Origin: Candidatus Bathyarchaeia archaeon
Lineage (GTDB): Archaea > Thermoproteota > Bathyarchaeia > TCS64
DNA: 10,778 bases
NCBI GenBank assembly: GCA_050014495.1
Contig: JBEKDF010000062.1
Location: 1-10,778 of the forward strand
Direction: 5' to 3'
Part shown: positions 370 to 9,910 of the stretch, in pieces
Numbering within the stretch: position 1 is the stretch's first letter
Layout: the number at the start of each line of letters is the position of its first letter
Program-made: the position numbers and the translations under genes
Notes under the pieces: generated by a model
What the model saw: the letters and a program-made list of their open reading frames with translations, nothing else
Told to the model about the DNA's origin: nothing
The model's database searches: none

Positions 370-768
370 ATGGCAGAGCACATAGCAGAAAAAATCAAGA
401 CGGCTGACTGGAAAGCCGAAAAACATGTTCCAGTAATTGAATGTAAAGAGAAGATCCAAAAAGACGAGCTGTTAAACGTTAAATTATCAGTGGGTAAGGA
501 AATCAGTCACCCAAATACAACTGAACATCACATCAGGTGGATAAGGGCCTACTTTGTTCCGGAGGGTGGCACGTCCGCATACGATCTCGGATCATTTGAG
601 TTCAACGCCCATGGGGAAAGTGGCGCCGGTCCGAATAAGGGGCCTGTTTACACTCATCATGAGGTGAGTTTCTCCTTTAGGACGGGTCAATCAGGCACGA
701 TAAATGCCGTGTCATACTGTAACATCCATGGGTTGTGGGAGTCGTCTAAAATAATCCAAGTAGAGTAG
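370..768 (+). CDS. Class II SORL-domain protein (superoxide reductase / neelaredoxin-desulfoferrodoxin family)
   Basis: Iron-site motifs EKHVP, HPNTTEHHIRWI and YCNIHGLW are all present. There is no N-terminal desulforedoxin CxxC domain. Confidence 0.92.
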   Translation: MAEHIAEKIKTADWKAEKHVPVIECKEKIQKDELLNVKLSVGKEISHPNTTEHHIRWIRAYFVPEGGTSAYDLGSFEFNAHGESGAGPNKGPVYTHHEVSFSFRTGQSGTINAVSYCNIHGLWESSKIIQVE

Positions 769-824: not shown

Positions 825-1301
825 ATGAGAATAATAGCTGGGATGGGCGAGTTCTTCAGACAGTCAAGGGTTGTCTTTATGACAACATTATCCGAGACGG
901 GTGAGGAACATAGCAGAGCCATGACAAACTTCAACGAAGATCCATACTCGATGATGTGGTTTCCGACATATACCAATACAAGGAAGGTGGATGACATCAG
1001 AAATAATCCAAAGGTGCTCATCCTTTTTCCAGCTCAGGAAGAGGGGGAGTATTACGAGATTGAAGGCATGGGAGAGTTAGCGGATGAGGTAGAGGTAAAT
1101 GAGAAATGGAGATGGTGGTACCTCTACTGGCGTCCTGAGATGGAAGACAAGTTCTGGTTCCCTAGTGATGGGATTCACCCTGAGAGGTCTTTGATTCATG
1201 TCTCACCGATTGAGGTGAAGTTGATTAAAGGGGTCAAATTCGAGAGATTAGTAGCTGAATTACCTCATGAATATCGCTATTACCTTAAAATAATAAGGTA
1301 A
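825..1301 (+). CDS. Pyridoxamine 5'-phosphate oxidase-like (FMN/F420-binding split barrel, general stress protein type)
   Basis: Signature 'SRAM...MWFPTYTNTRKVDDIRNNPKVLILF...YEIEG' followed by a Trp-rich segment and 'LIHVSP'. Confidence 0.8.
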   Translation: MRIIAGMGEFFRQSRVVFMTTLSETGEEHSRAMTNFNEDPYSMMWFPTYTNTRKVDDIRNNPKVLILFPAQEEGEYYEIEGMGELADEVEVNEKWRWWYLYWRPEMEDKFWFPSDGIHPERSLIHVSPIEVKLIKGVKFERLVAELPHEYRYYLKIIR

Positions 1302-3399: not shown

Positions 3400-4455
3400 T
3401 CACCGCCCCATAGGATGAGGCTCAGGGTGAGAATGAGGACCCAGCCAGGGATCCAACTTCGTCTTTATGTACACCCAGCCATCACCGTAGTCTAGCTGGG
3501 GTAGATGCATATTCTCGGAGTGACTTCTCAACCGAAAGCACCTATCAATCAGGTGATGAATCACGCGGACATCGTCCTCGTTGTACTCGAAGAACCGGGA
3601 CTCCAGCGGGGAGCCGTATTCAACGTGCCTCTGATACGCCTGTGCTACCTGTAGACCATCAAGGTCAGACTGCTTAAATCCATAGTTGAGGTACTTACCC
3701 AACTCCTTCAACGCGTAGCTGCTTTGTGGGAAGATGAAGCTCCTCCTCAGGAGAGTGCAGAGGTCAACATGGAGATACTCCTCAAGAGGATATGAGTCTA
3801 GCTCAAGCCGCTTCAAAGCCTTTAGGGTCACCCTGTAGTCGAAGCAGGTCCCCGAGTAACTCACCAGCGTATATCCTCTATGTATCACTAGGAAGCTCAG
3901 GAACTTCTCGAGGATGTCTTTCTCCTCCTCCCAACTCTCCGCGTAGAACTGGGTGAATCTACCATCGACTAGCAGTCCAATCAGCCAGACTCTGCTGCAC
4001 CTGTCATCGGTCTCGATGTCTATGTAGATAAGGCGGTCGCCTGGAAACTCGATCGACTCCGTCTGAAGAATCTTCCCGCTTACATAGGAGAGGGCTCGAA
4101 GTCGAATCTTGCGGAGCAGGGAAGCGGGTATTCCGAGTGGCTCCTCGAACTCTTCGATGTCAGTTATCTTGGCGATGTCGCCTATTGTTTCGAGGCCAAT
4201 TCCTCTCAGAACCTCAGAGTACCGTTTACCTATTCCATAGATGCTCTCAATAGGGAAACTCGCTGCTACACGGCTGCCTGTCCACCCAACCTCCGAGGCG
4301 TCATCGGGGCGACTCTGTGTTTCGATTGTCTCCTGCGAGGCTGATGCGTTCAAGGCATATTCGCTGGTGCCATTTTGGGCTGATAAGCAGTTGGAACGTT
4401 GCTGTGGGTTGGAGATCGGTGAAGGTGCCTTCTCACAACAGCCTTTTGCATGCAT
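3400..4455 (-). CDS. Helix-hairpin-helix + RNase H-fold DEDD exonuclease (RNase_H_2; YprB/TM0106 C-terminal type)
   Basis: HhH 'IESIYGIGKRYSEVLRGIGLETIGDIA', ExoI 'IYIDIET', ExoII 'SYSGTCFD', 'HVDL...SYALKELG', ExoIII 'YNEDDV'. The first ~60 aa are low-complexity and the true start is uncertain. Confidence 0.85.
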   Translation of the reverse strand: MHAKGCCEKAPSPISNPQQRSNCLSAQNGTSEYALNASASQETIETQSRPDDASEVGWTGSRVAASFPIESIYGIGKRYSEVLRGIGLETIGDIAKITDIEEFEEPLGIPASLLRKIRLRALSYVSGKILQTESIEFPGDRLIYIDIETDDRCSRVWLIGLLVDGRFTQFYAESWEEEKDILEKFLSFLVIHRGYTLVSYSGTCFDYRVTLKALKRLELDSYPLEEYLHVDLCTLLRRSFIFPQSSYALKELGKYLNYGFKQSDLDGLQVAQAYQRHVEYGSPLESRFFEYNEDDVRVIHHLIDRCFRLRSHSENMHLPQLDYGDGWVYIKTKLDPWLGPHSHPEPHPMGR

Positions 4456-4470
4456 AAGAAGGAGGGATGC

Positions 4471-4929
4471 CTACTTGGTACCCTTCATCCTCTTCTCGAC
4501 GCCGAGGATGGCGGCGATCTGCCCCTCATGATGGATTATCTCGCTCACCATAATCATCAAATAGTACTCGAGTGGCTTCTTGCCCTCCCATGCCTCTATC
4601 TCAGCGTCGAGCTTGTCATTAGTTAATTTGTTGAGGCCAGCGTTGAGCTTCCTGTGTCCCTTTTCTATGTCGGCCATGATTTTTTCCATTTTATACTTCG
4701 GGTTGCCAACGTAGTCCTTTGGCCAGTCTTTTGGTTGCGGTTCGCCTAATAATTTGGGTATATCGATGTTTAGCTCCTCACTCAGATGTGTGAGTATCCA
4801 CCTGATTGTATTTGCTTGGGTGCAGCTCTTCCAGTCGAGCTGCTCGGGCTTGAGGGTCTTCGTCGCACTCCCTAATCTGTCGAATCCAATCTGTGCGAAG
4901 TCCTTTATCATCTTCGTCTTGACGGTCAT
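4471..4929 (-). CDS. DinB/YfiT-family four-helix-bundle protein
   Basis: 'LKPEQLDWK...NTIRWILTHL' and C-terminal 'EIIHHEGQI' are DinB signatures. Confidence 0.85.
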   Translation of the reverse strand: MTVKTKMIKDFAQIGFDRLGSATKTLKPEQLDWKSCTQANTIRWILTHLSEELNIDIPKLLGEPQPKDWPKDYVGNPKYKMEKIMADIEKGHRKLNAGLNKLTNDKLDAEIEAWEGKKPLEYYLMIMVSEIIHHEGQIAAILGVEKRMKGTK

Positions 4930-5195: not shown

Positions 5196-5215
5196 GCTAG
5201 GATGCGGGCGCGTGT
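5196..5215 (-). repeat. Intergenic CG-alternating repeat copy
   Basis: Reverse complement ACACGCGCCCGCATCCTAGC differs from 2865-2882 only by a 2-nt insertion. Starts 15 nt after the stop of the ThiR-like gene, on the same strand. Confidence 0.7.
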
Positions 5216-5229
5216 TTAGGCTTTGGGGA

Positions 5230-6255
5230 TTACTGTTTTATCCTCTTCGAAAGATTTCGAGCGATCTTCACAGCTTCCTGAGCCACCTCTATCGGGTTTA
5301 TTCCGAAGAGAAAGACCATGGGCTCCTTCCCAATGCCACCGAGATCGTAGATCACATTCAGTGGTTCCTTCACATCTGAATACGCTCGTCTTATCCCCCA
5401 AGGTATCGTTTTACCCTCCATTACCCTAACTTCTTGTGGTTCGTCTCTTCTGTCGAAGTGAGAGATCACGAGTCCAAGTTCTTCGCATACCCTGATGACT
5501 TCGGCGTCGTACTTGAGGCTCAATGATGATCTTAGAGCAGGCTGAAGGGACATCATGGTTAGCGTGGCCCTAGCCACGTGTGATGACCCACCGAACTCTG
5601 GTGGTCTTGATGATCGTGGGTACCCTCCTATTGGGTGTATCCTGCCCGGAATCCCCACGATGTCGTTTATAGTATCTGCCTCTGGTTTGCCATATGTTAT
5701 GTTCATACCTATCTCGGGTATGAGGGAGGCAAGCTCTTTGCATCCCTCTATCAAGCTGAGGGATTGCCTCACCATGTCAATTATCTCCGCGTCCTCACGG
5801 GATCTCTGCTTGAATGTAGAGTAGTCCTCCACGCATACTGCGCAATTTATTGGTAGCTCCTCATATCCATCTCTATGGATTGCGCATATCGGTCCAAAGC
5901 TCCTAAGCTCCAAACATAAACCGCAGACTCTGCGTATGGCCTCTGTCTCAGTTAGCCTGCCGTCGATCCAATCCTCTGATATGTCCTTGGCGAGTGTCTC
6001 TATCTTCGTGACTCCTCTGAGCTCCTCCCTGGTCCGTGGTTTGCTGTGTAGGTAGCTGGAAACCGCGGGCTGAGTCACACCAACTATCTTAGCAGCCTGC
6101 AGTTGACTAATCCCCCTGTTGACAACTAATTCCCTCACGAGGGCTTTTCTCATGAGGGGTAACAGTTGCTCCGTTACTATCTCACAGGGTAGTCTGATCC
6201 TCACCTCGTCGCGTGGGGACCTCTTCGACTTCTCCTCCCCTTCCATGATGTTCAA
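5230..6255 (-). CDS. ThiR-like regulator: N-terminal HTH + Cys/His-rich linker + ThiN (thiamine-phosphate synthase) domain
   Basis: 'LPCEIV...GISQLQAAKIVGVTQPAVSSYL' HTH, linker 'CGLC...CAIH...CAVC', and ThiN motifs 'LIPEIGMNI', 'GIPGRI', 'PEFGGSSHVAR', 'DLGGIGKEPM'. Alternative start ATG 6246. Confidence 0.85.
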   Translation of the reverse strand: MNIMEGEEKSKRSPRDEVRIRLPCEIVTEQLLPLMRKALVRELVVNRGISQLQAAKIVGVTQPAVSSYLHSKPRTREELRGVTKIETLAKDISEDWIDGRLTETEAIRRVCGLCLELRSFGPICAIHRDGYEELPINCAVCVEDYSTFKQRSREDAEIIDMVRQSLSLIEGCKELASLIPEIGMNITYGKPEADTINDIVGIPGRIHPIGGYPRSSRPPEFGGSSHVARATLTMMSLQPALRSSLSLKYDAEVIRVCEELGLVISHFDRRDEPQEVRVMEGKTIPWGIRRAYSDVKEPLNVIYDLGGIGKEPMVFLFGINPIEVAQEAVKIARNLSKRIKQ

Positions 6256-6264
6256 TAAACGATC

Positions 6265-6281
6265 CTATAAGCTGCTTATAG
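6265..6281. promoter_or_regulatory. Palindromic operator candidate CTATAAG-ctg-CTTATAG upstream of the ThiR-like gene
   Basis: Perfect 7-bp inverted repeat in the 36-nt gap between the NTase stop and the regulator start. The same core occurs at 8734-8748. Confidence 0.6.
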
Positions 6282-6291
6282 TTGTTAGTCT

Positions 6292-7068
6292 TCACCTAAC
6301 GAGTTCCTCGACCTCATCCCACCATTTTTTCCTGGTTCCAACCAGCTTCCTCATCTCCCAGTTCCTAGACTTTGGCTCGGAATCGATTATTGTATTTATT
6401 TTCTCAATCTTGATCTTTAGTTCGTTGAACTGATTCTCTTCGACGCTTGGATCACTCCTAAGTAATCTGTTGAGGTTAGATTTCGCATCGAACCAGAAGC
6501 CCCAGTCATCGGCTAAAACGGATGCTATCCTTGAAACGTTAATAGATTCGGTGGCATCAACGTCGGTAAGAGGGTGTTCGAGGATTAGAATTTGTAGATC
6601 TCTTCTATCCTTCTCCTCAAGTGTGTGTATCTGAAGTTTAGATAATACAAGATCAGCGATCGTTAAGGTCGGGAAATCCAGCTCGATTCTCGCCGGCGCT
6701 CCCTCAGGTCGCAGGTTAATTTGATGGTTGAAGCGAAGTTTTTCGAAGAAGATGTCCACGGTGTATCTCCGTTCTGGATTGTGGAACATGAAGCGTTCCT
6801 CCCCGAAGTACGCCATAACGTAGCGGTCAGCGGTGTAGCCTGCGTCAATGAATAGATCATTCACTTCGACTTGTTTCGCTCTGTAAGTAACCATATCGAC
6901 GTCTTTTAACCCGTTTTTCTCCCGCTCAGGAACGTTGAGTCGATTTGTGTGGTTGTGGAATTCAATCGCAGCTCCACCAGTGAGCCTAAGGGGGATGCCC
7001 CACTTCTCTGCCTCCTCCACTAACCTGAGGGCATCGTTGAGGATCGGCTCAGTGATCGGGTTTGTCAA
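6292..7068 (-). CDS. Uncharacterised nucleotidyltransferase-fold protein (Pol beta superfamily-like)
   Basis: 'LRLTGGAA' + 'KDVDMV' (DxD) + 'TVDIF' (third Asp), then 'DLVLSKLQI...EKDRRDL'. TTG start lies 10 nt after the permease stop. Confidence 0.72.
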   Translation of the reverse strand: MTNPITEPILNDALRLVEEAEKWGIPLRLTGGAAIEFHNHTNRLNVPEREKNGLKDVDMVTYRAKQVEVNDLFIDAGYTADRYVMAYFGEERFMFHNPERRYTVDIFFEKLRFNHQINLRPEGAPARIELDFPTLTIADLVLSKLQIHTLEEKDRRDLQILILEHPLTDVDATESINVSRIASVLADDWGFWFDAKSNLNRLLRSDPSVEENQFNELKIKIEKINTIIDSEPKSRNWEMRKLVGTRKKWWDEVEELVR

Positions 7069-7078
7069 GCAGATCTAC

Positions 7079-8695
7079 CTACACTGGCGGGATCTCTTTG
7101 AAGGCGAGGTCAATGTCGACCCCCTGTCTGGCTCTGATGAATCTTATTATCCAATACAGGACGAAGCCTACAGCTATCATGCCAAAGTTCAGGAATAGGG
7201 CGTAAGGTGTTGAGATGCCGAACTGCGGGTATGCTATGAAGATGTATGCGATGGCGACCACGAAAGCCGCCTCAATGACTCCGAATATGGTTATTATCGG
7301 GATTCCGATTATCTCGCGCTTAATCGGTGAAGCCTCGTAGATGTCCTTTCTCCTGTATGGTAGTAGGGCTGCCGTGATCCCTGGGAGGAACATGCAGCTG
7401 AACGCTGGTCCGATTATTGTGGAGAAGAGGAAGGTCCAGAAGGCATCTGGGAAGATGGCTACTATCACAAGGAAGGCTTCGCATATCAGGAATATTGCTA
7501 GGTTTGTATAGGTCGGTGTGTGGAACCTCGGGCTGACCTCCGAAAGCTTCCCTGGCATCAGTCTATCCATCGACCAGGCGAAGATGTTGCGGCTGATCTG
7601 GAGGTAGATGACTACCGTGTAGATCAGGGTGCCAGCGAGGGCCATTCCGAGTACGGCGAGTGCCGCTAACACTGGGTTCTGTGTGACGAGGCCAAAGAAC
7701 GCCGTTATCATCTCCAGCGCGTTGCTCCAGGGTAGTCCCTGAGGATTATACGTGGCGAGGTAGCTGACCGAGGCCAAGAAGTTGTATCCAATGGTCCTGA
7801 ATGCGTAGTAGAAGAGCAAGGCGAGGAAGAGTAGGTTGAATAGCCCGGCGCCGGCCATTGAGAATAGATTTCTCTTGACGGAGCCGGCCTCCTTCACCTC
7901 GCCGGCGATGTATGCTGAGTAGAATGTCCACCAAACCGCGTTGGTTGCTATGGCGAGTAGGGGCCAATCAAATGTGAGAGGAGGTGCGTTGTATCCTCCC
8001 TGATTCGCAGCATCTATGATAGATTGGTATGGGTTCGCTGCGGCTCCGAACTGACCTCCATAGCTATGCATGAAGGAGTTGAATATTCCTATGAATCCCT
8101 GATTTCCGACAAGGACCAGAGAAATGAGGGCTACTCCGATGCCGGCGATCATGATGAGCCAGATCGCATTGTTCGCGATCAGCATCCTCTTTGTGCCTGA
8201 TAGGGCGAGTAGTGTGAATACCACGTTTAGGAGTGAGCCGACGACGAAGGCGACTAACGGGGTCATCAGCGCCAACCCGATGTTGATTATGGCCTGGTTC
8301 CCCAGGAGGTACCCGATTATGTGAAATCCGGGACCTAAGCCGTAGAAGCTGATTAGGTAGAAGTTGAAGGCGAGGAAGAATGTCTGCCAGAAGACGAGGC
8401 TGAAGTTGAAGCCGAAACCTAGGGATGGGTGCAATACCCTGCTGTTGAACACGTAGTCCCCACCGGATCTTGGGAATGTGGAGACCAGCATCGCGTACAC
8501 TATCGCGATTGAGAAGGCGAGTAGAACTAGTGGGAGAGCCGAGAGGACATCCCCGCCGTTGGCGAAGGTTACAGCGAAGGCGTAGTTTCCGATTACGCTA
8601 GCGAAGGAGCTCGCGGATGAGTTGTAGATGAATGTGTCTAAGAGTGAGGCCTGACGGATTAGTCCCGAGGTCTTCCTGGAGAAGGCGCTGGACAT
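7079..8695 (-). CDS. APC-superfamily (amino acid/polyamine/organocation) permease
   Basis: 538 aa with about 12-14 hydrophobic segments. Motifs 'FSRKTSGLIR', 'FPRSGGDYVFNSRVL', 'AYIAGEVK', 'SRNIFAWSMDRLMP...HTP' and terminal 'FKEIPP'. Confidence 0.92.
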   Translation of the reverse strand: MSSAFSRKTSGLIRQASLLDTFIYNSSASSFASVIGNYAFAVTFANGGDVLSALPLVLLAFSIAIVYAMLVSTFPRSGGDYVFNSRVLHPSLGFGFNFSLVFWQTFFLAFNFYLISFYGLGPGFHIIGYLLGNQAIINIGLALMTPLVAFVVGSLLNVVFTLLALSGTKRMLIANNAIWLIMIAGIGVALISLVLVGNQGFIGIFNSFMHSYGGQFGAAANPYQSIIDAANQGGYNAPPLTFDWPLLAIATNAVWWTFYSAYIAGEVKEAGSVKRNLFSMAGAGLFNLLFLALLFYYAFRTIGYNFLASVSYLATYNPQGLPWSNALEMITAFFGLVTQNPVLAALAVLGMALAGTLIYTVVIYLQISRNIFAWSMDRLMPGKLSEVSPRFHTPTYTNLAIFLICEAFLVIVAIFPDAFWTFLFSTIIGPAFSCMFLPGITAALLPYRRKDIYEASPIKREIIGIPIITIFGVIEAAFVVAIAYIFIAYPQFGISTPYALFLNFGMIAVGFVLYWIIRFIRARQGVDIDLAFKEIPPV

Positions 8696-8719
8696 CGCCT
8701 TAATTCTTCAACCATGGTG

Positions 8720-8750
8720 GTTATAAGTAATTATATAAGTGACTTATAAC
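8720..8750. promoter_or_regulatory. Divergent promoter/operator with nested palindromes
   Basis: GTTATAAGT (8720-8728) and ACTTATAAC (8742-8750) form a perfect 9-bp inverted repeat. TATAAG-tga-CTTATA is at 8734-8748. TATA-like boxes for both directions overlap within the 66-nt gap. Confidence 0.7.
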
Positions 8751-8761
8751 TCGTTGAGGTT

Positions 8762-9712
8762 GTGGCTAGGACCCGACTCTTCTTCGCGACGGACATACAC
8801 GGTTCGGTGACATGCTTCCTAAAATTCCTGAATGCATCTAGGGTCTACAAAGCCGACGTTATGGTCTTAGCGGGCGACCTCAGTGGAAAACTCCTAATAC
8901 CAATCGTTGAGCGTGGAGACGACTCATACGAGTCAACGTTCATGGGGGTTCGCCATGTCGTATCAGAAGGGAAACGAACTGAACTTGAGGAGCGTATCCG
9001 TAGGGTGGGTTCCTATCCTCACATTATGAGTAAAAATGAGTACGATGAGCTTCTCAGGAAACCCGAAAGGGCTAACGCCCTCTTTGAGGGTCTGATAAGG
9101 GAGAGAATCGAGAAGTGGGTTACACTAGCGGATGATAGACTGAGGGGGGCCTCGGCGGAGTACTATGTCTCAGGCGGCAACGACGATTTCCCCTGGGTGG
9201 ATGAGCTATTGAAGAAATCCCGATCCTTCACCGACGGAGAGGGAGAAATAATCCGAATCAGGGGTCGGAATGAGATGATGACCTGTGGGTGGTCGAACCC
9301 CACACCATGGGGAACGCCAAGGGAAACGAGTGAAGATGACCTGACGAAGAGGATAACGGGCCTCACTTCGGAGGTCGAGTCGATGGATGGATGCATCTTC
9401 AACCTCCACGCCCCTCCTTACGACTCTGATTTAGATGTGTGTCAGAGGCTAAGCGAGGAACTGAAGCCAATCTTCGTTGGAGGACAACCCGACGTATTCA
9501 ACGCCGGTAGCGTAGCCGTCCGCAGGTGCATAGAGGAGCTCAAGCCGATGCTGGGGCTCCACGGTCACATACACGAGTCTAGAGGTGTGGCCATGATTGG
9601 GAGGACAACCTGCGTTAATCCGGGGAGTGAGTATGCGGAGACGATCCTGAGGGGTGCTATTCTCGACATCGAGAACAACCATGTCAAGAACCACATCCTC
9701 ACATCAGGCTGA
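8762..9712 (+). CDS. Calcineurin-like metallophosphoesterase (Icc-related)
   Basis: Five MPP motifs: TDIHG, AGDL, GGNDD, LHAPP, HGHIHE, then 'VNPGS'. GTG start is preceded by GAGGT. Confidence 0.92.
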   Translation: MARTRLFFATDIHGSVTCFLKFLNASRVYKADVMVLAGDLSGKLLIPIVERGDDSYESTFMGVRHVVSEGKRTELEERIRRVGSYPHIMSKNEYDELLRKPERANALFEGLIRERIEKWVTLADDRLRGASAEYYVSGGNDDFPWVDELLKKSRSFTDGEGEIIRIRGRNEMMTCGWSNPTPWGTPRETSEDDLTKRITGLTSEVESMDGCIFNLHAPPYDSDLDVCQRLSEELKPIFVGGQPDVFNAGSVAVRRCIEELKPMLGLHGHIHESRGVAMIGRTTCVNPGSEYAETILRGAILDIENNHVKNHILTSG

Positions 9713-9910
9713 CGCCCCACATAGTGAAGTTTGACTATCATCAAAATTCGAAAGAACGACACATAATTTCACAGCTTGTTACGACATAAGTTAGTCATGA
9801 AGATTAATCCCAATTGGTTTGTCCAATTGTGGCACTCAAGAAGGAGCCATCACGAGCGCACCACTCGTCGCCTCAAATAAGGGCCCTACCATGATATCAA
9901 AGAACCCGCA

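Follow-up and report, generated by a model that had tools for sequence, protein, structure and literature searches.

A conserved palindrome as the probable operator of a ThiR-like regulator in a Bathyarchaeia archaeon

The contig JBEKDF010000062.1 of a Candidatus Bathyarchaeia archaeon, a stretch of 10,778 bases analysed here in full and called the window, carries a cluster of four genes. They encode a permease, a 258-residue protein of no recognised family, a divergently transcribed metallophosphoesterase, and ThiR, a predicted transcriptional regulator in which a probable helix-turn-helix (HTH) domain is joined to a ThiN domain. Two copies of the palindrome TATAAG-N3-CTTATA, hereafter O1 and O2, lie in intergenic gaps of this cluster. 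Judged by their sequence and by their distribution among relatives, O1 and O2 are probably operators of ThiR, of a form specific to one clade of that protein, and they overlap the region of the TATA box and the B recognition element (BRE). The window is contig C62 of a metagenome-assembled genome labelled G000 (3,108,400 bases in 92 contigs, 96% complete, 7.5% contamination); other G numbers denote relative genomes, and L numbers denote loci.

Two palindromes in the thiR gene cluster

O1 (TATAAG-CTG-CTTATA) sits in the 36-nucleotide (nt) gap between the 258-residue gene and thiR, with its centre 27 nt 5′ of the likely thiR start on the minus strand, ATG 6246, which gives a protein of 338 residues; the listed start is TTG 6255. 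O2 (TATAAG-TGA-CTTATA) sits in the 66 nt from which the permease and phosphoesterase genes diverge, with its centre 21 nt 5′ of the phosphoesterase start, GTG 8762 (Table 1). An earlier sequence-only reading of this DNA had described a palindrome of 6+6 bp in exactly the two intergenic gaps of the cluster. Both sites lie where that reading placed them, but the cluster has three gaps, and the third, the 10 nt between the 258-residue gene and the permease gene (7069-7078), has no site. The N3 core is likewise exact, but the true arms are longer: a repeat search of the window extended them to 8+8 at O1 (CTATAAGC and GCTTATAG, 6265-6272 and 6274-6281) and 7+7 at O2 (8734-8740 and 8742-8748). The further statement that the palindrome occurs nowhere else in the window holds even with up to two mismatches allowed, O1 and O2 being the sole matches; dinucleotide shuffles of the window gave a mean of 0.31 matches and reached two in 10 of 200 cases. 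Also present as described is a third, solitary half-site, which lies within a 9-bp outer inverted repeat (GTTATAAGT, 8720-8728; ACTTATAAC, 8742-8750; arms 13 nt apart). This half-site is offset by 12 bp from O2's left half, and its centre is about 29-29.5 nt from the permease start, ATG 8695.

Across all of G000, the exact motif occurs twice, at O1 and O2, which lie within 2.5 kb of each other and flank the thiR cluster; this is the outcome of the genome scan that the earlier reading had proposed. Given 544 copies of TATAAG and 591 of CTTATA, about 0.1 exact sites would be expected. When spacers of 0-40 nt were allowed, the inverted arrangement was found 11 times in all, two of these being the N3 sites, and the everted arrangement three times. 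One-mismatch variants occur at seven further places, against 13 for a reversed-pattern control, and are thus not in excess. A scan of G000 with a symmetrised weight matrix gave no additional credible operator. Its next best matches were C13:57289, flanked by two genes that by eye were judged Mrp/Nuo-like and glutamate dehydrogenase-like, together with positions within coding sequence. Six genomes of the ThiR clade hold 12 exact sites (two each in G000, G012 and G042, four in G016, and one each in G025 and G041), 10 of them in thiR clusters, and no exact site occurs in five genomes of the same family that have no ThiR match.

Co-occurrence of the palindrome with a ThiR clade

The four-gene cluster, with the phosphoesterase gene diverging from permease, 258-residue gene and thiR, recurs in G006, G012, G016 and G025. 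ThiR is 83%, 83%, 54% and 53% identical to the window protein in these genomes, respectively, and the permease 93%, 91%, 74% and 66%. G006, G012 and G016 carry exact sites in both gaps, with the O1-type site at the identical distance of 27 nt. G025 has an exact site in the divergent gap; its thiR, which is split from the 258-residue gene by an inserted divergent M20 gene, lies behind a one-mismatch site, TATAAC-TAT-CTTATA. The expected conservation in orthologous promoters is therefore seen, since both the genes and the sites recur. The gap shared by the permease and phosphoesterase genes keeps an exact site in four other genomes, which supports, at the level of sequence, their joint control as earlier suggested. 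In a five-way alignment of this gap the sole invariant block spans 8722-8749, and the remainder aligns unconvincingly.

Sites of the same kind precede more distant thiR genes. In L068-L071, where ThiR is 49-50% identical to the window protein, thiR is preceded by TATAAGT-N5-TATAAG-N3-(C/G)TTATA, in a gap that it shares with a divergent gene for a BMP-type ABC binding protein, and L071 has a second full site before the transporter gene. One half-site reads GTTATA in L068, L070 and L200-L205, and G035, with a ThiR 42% identical, has TATAAT-TAA-CTTATA. When metagenomes were scanned with the clade alignment, 52 loci were obtained. All 21 non-self loci whose ThiR is at least 44% identical have a site in the 130 nt 5′ of thiR, 12 of these sites being exact and nine carrying one mismatch; their centres mostly fall 25-30 nt before the codon inferred to be the first. 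Several of these loci nearly duplicate loci in metagenome-assembled genomes, so not all 21 are independent. Where ThiR identity is 41% or less, one of 14 metagenome loci has a site upstream; in two more, L221 and L225, the site overlaps the inferred start.

A maximum-likelihood tree was built from 52 full-length ThiR rows, 49 of them different. One of its clades (support 100/99) has 31 members, all 31 with a site, one mismatch at most, in front of thiR; of the 21 remaining rows one has such a site. Because kin share these labels, the tree records co-inheritance of the protein clade and the site and does not count independent events. This distribution supports the assignment of the palindrome to the adjacent HTH-ThiN protein, and the site before thiR in every clade member is what the suggested autoregulation would predict. 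Tallied over 22 distinct sites, the core reads T22 A22 T22 A21 A22 G18, N3, C18 T22 T22 A22 T22 A22. CTTATA/TATAAG is the only hexamer found in 10 of 10 thiR upstream regions and also in all seven of a more divergent subset.

The relatives tie these sites to thiamine genes and transporters. thiR adjoins a riboswitch-thiW / P-loop / thiD-thiN unit in G012 and L191, and thiW, tenA and thiD-thiN in L068-L071, L200-L206 and L213 (thiW recognised by TIGR02359 at 153.7 bits, tenA by PF03070). In G000 itself thiW and thiD-thiN are on a different contig from thiR. In G025:C7 and L198, where no riboswitch was found, thiW is immediately preceded by variant sites. In several relatives a gene of the M20/ArgE type (NCBIfam PRK08596, 565 bits) shares the site-bearing gap with thiR; we presume that it may resemble Bacillus YlmB, a formylaminopyrimidine deformylase and hence a salvage enzyme. 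The sequence-only reading had proposed a test for enrichment upstream of thi or transporter genes; in relatives the site precedes thiW, the BMP-type ABC transporter, the permease and the M20 gene.

Other ThiR clades carry other sequences. In g11 Bathyarchaeia (L058-L062) we found AAGATTTAATCTT about 45-60 nt 5′ of thiR, and in two Brockarchaeota-like contigs (L086 and L088; 5185-5205) ACATGTTTATAAACATGT in the divergent gap between thiR and thiD-thiN. Two arrangements with a second ThiR-like gene were also noted: L221 has two such genes in tandem, each behind a one-mismatch site, and L214 has two sites facing thiD-thiN and a second ThiR copy.

Architecture of the ThiR protein

The ThiN domain of the window protein is matched by Pfam PF10120 over residues 162-329 (179 bits, cut-off 25). 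The protein matches Protein Data Bank (PDB) entry 2pb9 with E = 4.3e-39, on which the modelled ThiN domain superposes with a template modelling (TM) score of 0.90 and a root-mean-square deviation of 1.6. The AlphaFold2 (AF2) model of ThiR, with a predicted local distance difference test (pLDDT) score of 75, has helices at 48-55 and 59-67 that span the invariant stretch VTQPAVS. Across 12 aligned ThiR proteins VTQPA is invariant, within the predicted recognition helix, and the ThiN core is also common to all 12. Homologues bear the Joint Genome Institute (JGI) name 'predicted fused transcriptional regulator/phosphomethylpyrimidine kinase'. Homodimer predictions scored 0.25 and 0.27, against a mark of 0.42.

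Between the HTH and ThiN domains lies a Cys/His pattern, CxxC-x9-C-xx-H-x10-CxxC, which is accompanied by an N-terminal Cys. All 12 proteins, drawn from several clades, have C121, H124, C135 and C138, and C21, C108 and C111 are present in at least 90% of the rows. The pattern may hold a metal or an iron-sulfur cluster; confidence in the AF2 model is low over this region.

Relation of the predicted operators to core promoters

The gene-facing half-sites lie about 25.5 nt (phosphoesterase), about 29.5 nt (permease) and 31.5 nt (thiR) from the start codons, and distances of 25-32 nt fit TATA boxes of leaderless or short-leader messenger RNAs. The left half of O2 occupies the expected TATA-box position of the phosphoesterase gene; with respect to the permease, O2 lies just upstream of the TATA box, at the BRE position. 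The third half-site is less well explained as a piece of a second operator than as the TATA box of the permease itself, which it likely is. A TATAA(A/G) box 12 bp upstream of the palindrome is present at 19 of 22 distinct thiR-upstream sites. The sites without it are those of the window, L192 and L193, where the 258-residue gene or no called gene lies directly upstream, yet L054 and L196 keep the box despite an upstream 258-residue gene, so a rule that ties it to a divergent gene is not strict. Repressor sites that overlap the core promoter are common among archaeal repressors.

We propose the following mechanism. A ThiR dimer would bind each palindrome when thiamine phosphate is plentiful and would silence three units: thiR, the permease operon and the phosphoesterase gene that diverges from it. 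In each palindrome the upstream half would also serve as a TATA box, for a transcript with a short leader or none, and bound ThiR would compete with the TATA-binding protein (TBP) and transcription factor B (TFB) at thiR and the phosphoesterase gene, while at the permease promoter it would cover the BRE side. The permease, the obvious candidate for a pyrimidine importer, would be de-repressed when thiamine phosphate runs low. Thiamine monophosphate (TMP) as the effector, and repression as the direction of control, are carried over by analogy from what the 2017 ThiR papers reportedly found; binding as a dimer is presumed.

The palindromes might instead be operators of another regulator, with ThiR as one of its targets. 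G000 and many relatives do encode stand-alone paralogues of the HTH domain of ThiR, short proteins with about 31% identity to its residues 19-134; the G000 copy lies on contig C10. We consider this improbable, since the site follows the full-length ThiR clade and stands before thiR in every one of its members, and paralogues are encoded as well in G015 and G017, which gave no full-length ThiR match. The five site-free genomes mentioned above match neither ThiR nor the paralogue, and so do not separate the two as binder. The related palindrome ATAAC-N3-GTTAT, in which the innermost base of each arm is swapped, is present at five places in G000, a number similar to that of other AT-rich palindromes, and at none in the window.

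Alternatively, the palindromes could be promoter elements only, back-to-back TATA boxes with no dedicated regulator. The distances from gene-facing half-site to start codon place them where archaeal TATA boxes lie, and both the third half-site and the offset TATAA(A/G) boxes are best read in this way. However, TATAAG is not the common TATA-like hexamer of G000: in its non-coding DNA, crudely delimited, the enriched AT-rich hexamers are TTTAAA, ATTTAA and TAAATA, and CTTATA/TATAAG comes 105th in order of enrichment and, by count, 307th of 2080. Although only one half of O1 can act for thiR, all 31 clade members retain the two halves and their exact 3-nt spacing; the full palindrome before the ABC-transporter gene of L071 has no rightward gene to serve; and the five related genomes without ThiR lack any such palindrome. 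Promoter elements alone are accordingly a quite improbable explanation. The earlier caution that the motif might be common at unrelated promoters, as mere TATA boxes, probably does not hold for the palindrome, whose half is not the generic TATA hexamer. As a separate observation, the hexamers most enriched in the crude non-coding DNA of G000 are CGCGCG and GCGCGC, 15.6-fold and 13.3-fold over coding DNA.

It is very unlikely, in our view, that ThiR activates the permease and ABC-transporter promoters and represses thiR and the phosphoesterase gene only. At the permease gene and at the BMP-type transporter gene of L071 the palindrome does lie on the BRE-distal side of the TATA-like box, and several archaeal activators bind at such a position. 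Against this, the near half-site starts 6 nt from the TATA-like box, so that a bound dimer would cover the BRE, and, if binding needs thiamine phosphate, as is reported for ThiR, activated uptake in replete cells would lack physiological sense. That O1 is instead an RNA hairpin terminating the permease / 258-residue transcript is extremely unlikely: it does lie 11 nt past the stop codon of the 258-residue gene and is followed by GTTTATT, but its folding energy of -5.3 kcal/mol is unexceptional (z = -0.39; 69 of 200 shuffles fold as well), its half-sites are invariant and do not co-vary, and the motif also occurs in divergent promoter gaps, where there is nothing to terminate.

Several observations weigh against O1 and O2 as thiamine-responsive ThiR operators. 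A search for RNA runs containing window positions 5200-9800 returned none, and transcription starts are placed from the distances. Operator and core promoter overlap, and part of the half-site conservation may serve the promoter itself. The HTH_3 match in ThiR is sub-threshold (E = 7.5e-4; 19.9 bits against a cut-off of 23). Two exact sites of G016 lie outside any thiR cluster, among neighbours without an obvious thiamine role: one precedes a CARDB-domain gene that adjoins a GHMP kinase gene, and the other precedes a class-III aminotransferase gene directly after a POR subunit gene. Within G000, no such palindrome was seen by eye upstream of thiM-thiE on contig C8, and on C19 a thiamine pyrophosphate (TPP) riboswitch takes the place of the site before the thiW / P-loop / thiD-thiN operon. 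Since the recognised thi genes of G000 are without the site, the thiamine link of the permease, the 258-residue protein and the phosphoesterase is one of association.

The ThiN domain itself adds to these points. It keeps the Arg and His that we take to be catalytic, and M232, the Met at position H+9, which we take to mark catalytic ThiN domains, is invariant in the ThiR clade; because these residues are kept, the domain is not clearly a pure sensor. Hwang et al. 2017 are said to have described the ThiN domain of ThiR as non-catalytic, with the Met near the active-site His missing and one helix shorter. When ThiR ThiN domains were aligned with those of seven ThiD-ThiN proteins, no deletion was seen, including near the His. 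One substitution does separate the two groups, residue D301, which is Asp in 12 of 12 ThiR proteins where ThiD-ThiN has His in seven of seven ('IYH' to 'IYD').

Thiamine genes and TPP riboswitches

G000 gave no ThiC match, and its Thi4 matches covered the Rossmann motif only. It has thiM-thiE on C8, a ThiL match of 232 bits and, on C19, a ThiD-ThiN fusion preceded by a P-loop open reading frame and a ThiW-like one; no thiamine pyrophosphokinase match was found, and neither TenA, nor a BMP-type binding protein, nor a close orthologue of the M20 protein turned up in tblastn searches of G000. Thiazole is usually imported by ThiW. Apart from the permease of the cluster, G000 showed no recognisable pyrimidine importer. 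Because the genome lacks ThiC and Thi4 and has ThiM, ThiE, ThiD-ThiN, ThiL and a riboswitch-controlled ThiW, the organism would have to import the pyrimidine moiety. It would then make TPP from imported thiazole and pyrimidine moieties, as a precursor salvager.

The TPP riboswitch (RF00059) upstream of the C19 operon scored 65.2 bits against a cut-off of 54.3, and none was found in the window. TPP riboswitches precede thiW / P-loop / thiD-thiN operons with scores of 57-66 bits, and thiW lies behind one in 13 places (G000 C19, L053, L054, L068, L069, L071 twice, L191, L195, L200, L202, L206 and L213). Among 151 Bathyarchaeia genomes searched, 92 have a TPP riboswitch above the cut-off; none was found there in five g11 genomes, G025, G035 and G037, which hold other ThiR clades or two ThiR copies. 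Archaeal TPP riboswitches had reportedly been regarded as confined to Thermoplasmatales, and a narrow literature search gave no paper on TPP riboswitches in Bathyarchaeia.

In the riboswitch-controlled operons, thiW and thiD-thiN are separated by the gene for a conserved P-loop protein of 184-196 residues (GxxGxGKT). This protein had no Pfam or NCBIfam match, and may be an unnamed thiamine-linked protein.

We tentatively suggest, as a possibility somewhat short of even, a system of dual sensing. A TPP riboswitch would gate thiW / thiD-thiN, ThiR, as a sensor of thiamine phosphate, would govern a separate uptake and salvage module, and the two would be interchangeable at thiW. The APC permease, as pyrimidine importer, the nucleotidyltransferase-like protein and the metallophosphoesterase could then be undescribed parts of vitamin B1-precursor scavenging in peat and sediment archaea.

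Relation to known thiamine regulators

In 2017, Rodionov et al. (J Bacteriol 199:e00743-16) and Hwang et al. (J Bacteriol 199:e00810-16) reportedly described ThiR as an archaeal repressor of thiamine genes built from HTH and ThiN domains. That work is said to have covered Crenarchaeota, Halobacteria and Thermococci, with lineage-specific palindromic motifs and thiamine phosphate as co-repressor; Bathyarchaeia were reportedly not among the lineages analysed. The window protein resembles ThiR in its domain architecture, ThiN with a sub-threshold HTH, in the palindrome before its own gene and before thiamine transport and salvage genes, and in its linkage to thi genes. The operator sequences are lineage-specific here as well, other clades carrying AAGATTTAATCTT and ACATGTTTATAAACATGT, whereas the consensus TATAAG-N3-CTTATA is this clade's own. 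Unlike in known ThiR systems, the predicted regulon of G000 is without a recognised thi gene and has instead the APC permease, the 258-residue protein and the metallophosphoesterase. By keeping the presumed catalytic features, the ThiN domain would differ from that reported for known ThiR; from ThiD-ThiN it differs in one invariant His-to-Asp change. The TPP riboswitch, which senses the end product of the pathway that ThiR would control, precedes thiW, a gene that bears a ThiR-type site instead in G025:C7 and L198; unlike ThiR, it is a cis-acting RNA sensor of TPP and not a protein on promoter DNA. ThiR itself has been known since 2017; the novelty lies in the lineage, in the consensus, in a regulon composed of uptake genes and genes of unknown function, and in the coexistence with TPP riboswitches. 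In passages of PMC10746257, ThiR is cited as a regulator of thiamine transport in Pyrococcus furiosus, and the 2017 ThiR papers appear in the reference lists of both that article and PMC8305020.

Bathyarchaeia are abundant, uncultured archaea of peat and sediment, in which gene control is almost unexplored. Our analysis offers for them a concrete predicted pair of regulator and operator with a clear consensus, and the cluster points to candidate B1-salvage transporters and enzymes that no database names. If the ThiR reading is true, a protein sensor and an RNA sensor of one vitamin would stand side by side in archaea, and these organisms would be thiamine-precursor auxotrophs that regulate uptake.

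Cluster genes and other features

The permease matches Pfam AA_permease_2 (E = 1.1e-17). In 251 Bathyarchaeia genomes searched, orthologues of at least about 66-67% identity occur only in the five cluster-bearing genomes, and the next best match outside them is 39% identical. Among paralogous permeases of other Bathyarchaeia, no TPP riboswitch was found in 10 loci and no site with at most one mismatch in 25 loci (107,692 bases); the permease family overall is therefore not thiamine-linked, only the orthologue group of the cluster. That orthologue is a candidate importer of the pyrimidine moiety (hydroxymethylpyrimidine (HMP) or a relative) or of thiamine.

The 258-residue protein, whose gene is kept in all four orthologous clusters, had no Pfam or NCBIfam match at threshold. 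NTP_transf_5 matched below threshold (E = 0.032), and atlas feature matches to clusters named 'nucleotidyltransferase family' reached 0.98. Its AF2 model has a pLDDT of 65; Foldseek returned nothing at E of 0.001 or less, and the top weak rows were nucleotidyltransferases. A nucleotidyltransferase-like nature is thus only a lead. In the phosphoesterase, which matched Metallophos Pfam families below threshold, D11, H13, D39, N140, H216, H269 and H271 are invariant in five orthologues, and we take these residues to be the metal-binding motifs and ligands of the family. A role for this enzyme as a TMP phosphatase feeding a pyrophosphokinase was rejected, as G000 has ThiL and no match to such a kinase.

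Table 1. Positions of the genes, sites and other features discussed; coordinates refer to the window unless a genome, contig or locus is given.
Feature	Position	Strand	Remark
Desulfoferrodoxin-type superoxide reductase	370-768		without the site
PNPOx-like flavoprotein	825-1301		without the site
RNase H-fold protein	3400-4455		without the site
DinB-family protein	4471-4929		without the site
thiR	5230-6255; 5233-6246 from the likely start	-	338-341 residues; probable HTH, Cys-rich linker, ThiN domain
O1, predicted operator	core 6266-6280; full palindrome 6265-6281		core TATAAGCTGCTTATA
Gene for 258-residue protein	6292-7068	-	no recognised family; candidate nucleotidyltransferase fold
APC-superfamily permease	7079-8695	-	538 residues
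Solitary third half-site, TATAAG	8722-8727		inside outer repeat arm 8720-8728
O2, predicted operator	8734-8748		TATAAGTGACTTATA
Calcineurin-type metallophosphoesterase	8762-9712	+	316 residues; divergent from permease
Stand-alone paralogue of ThiR HTH domain	G000:C10:21642-21995		
P-loop protein	G000:C19:49804-50343	-	
P-loop protein	L071:8593-9180		
TPP riboswitch	G000:C19:50910-51018	-	
Exact site outside thiR clusters (L148)	G016:C17:29830-29844		
Exact site outside thiR clusters (L153)	G016:C17:82446-82460		
M20 gene sharing thiR gap	L055:5259-6590; L071:4647-5954		also in G025, L194, L197, L198, L206 and L207
Tandem ThiR-like genes	L221:1259-3116		

The window stretch also occurs in peat and wetland metagenome runs.

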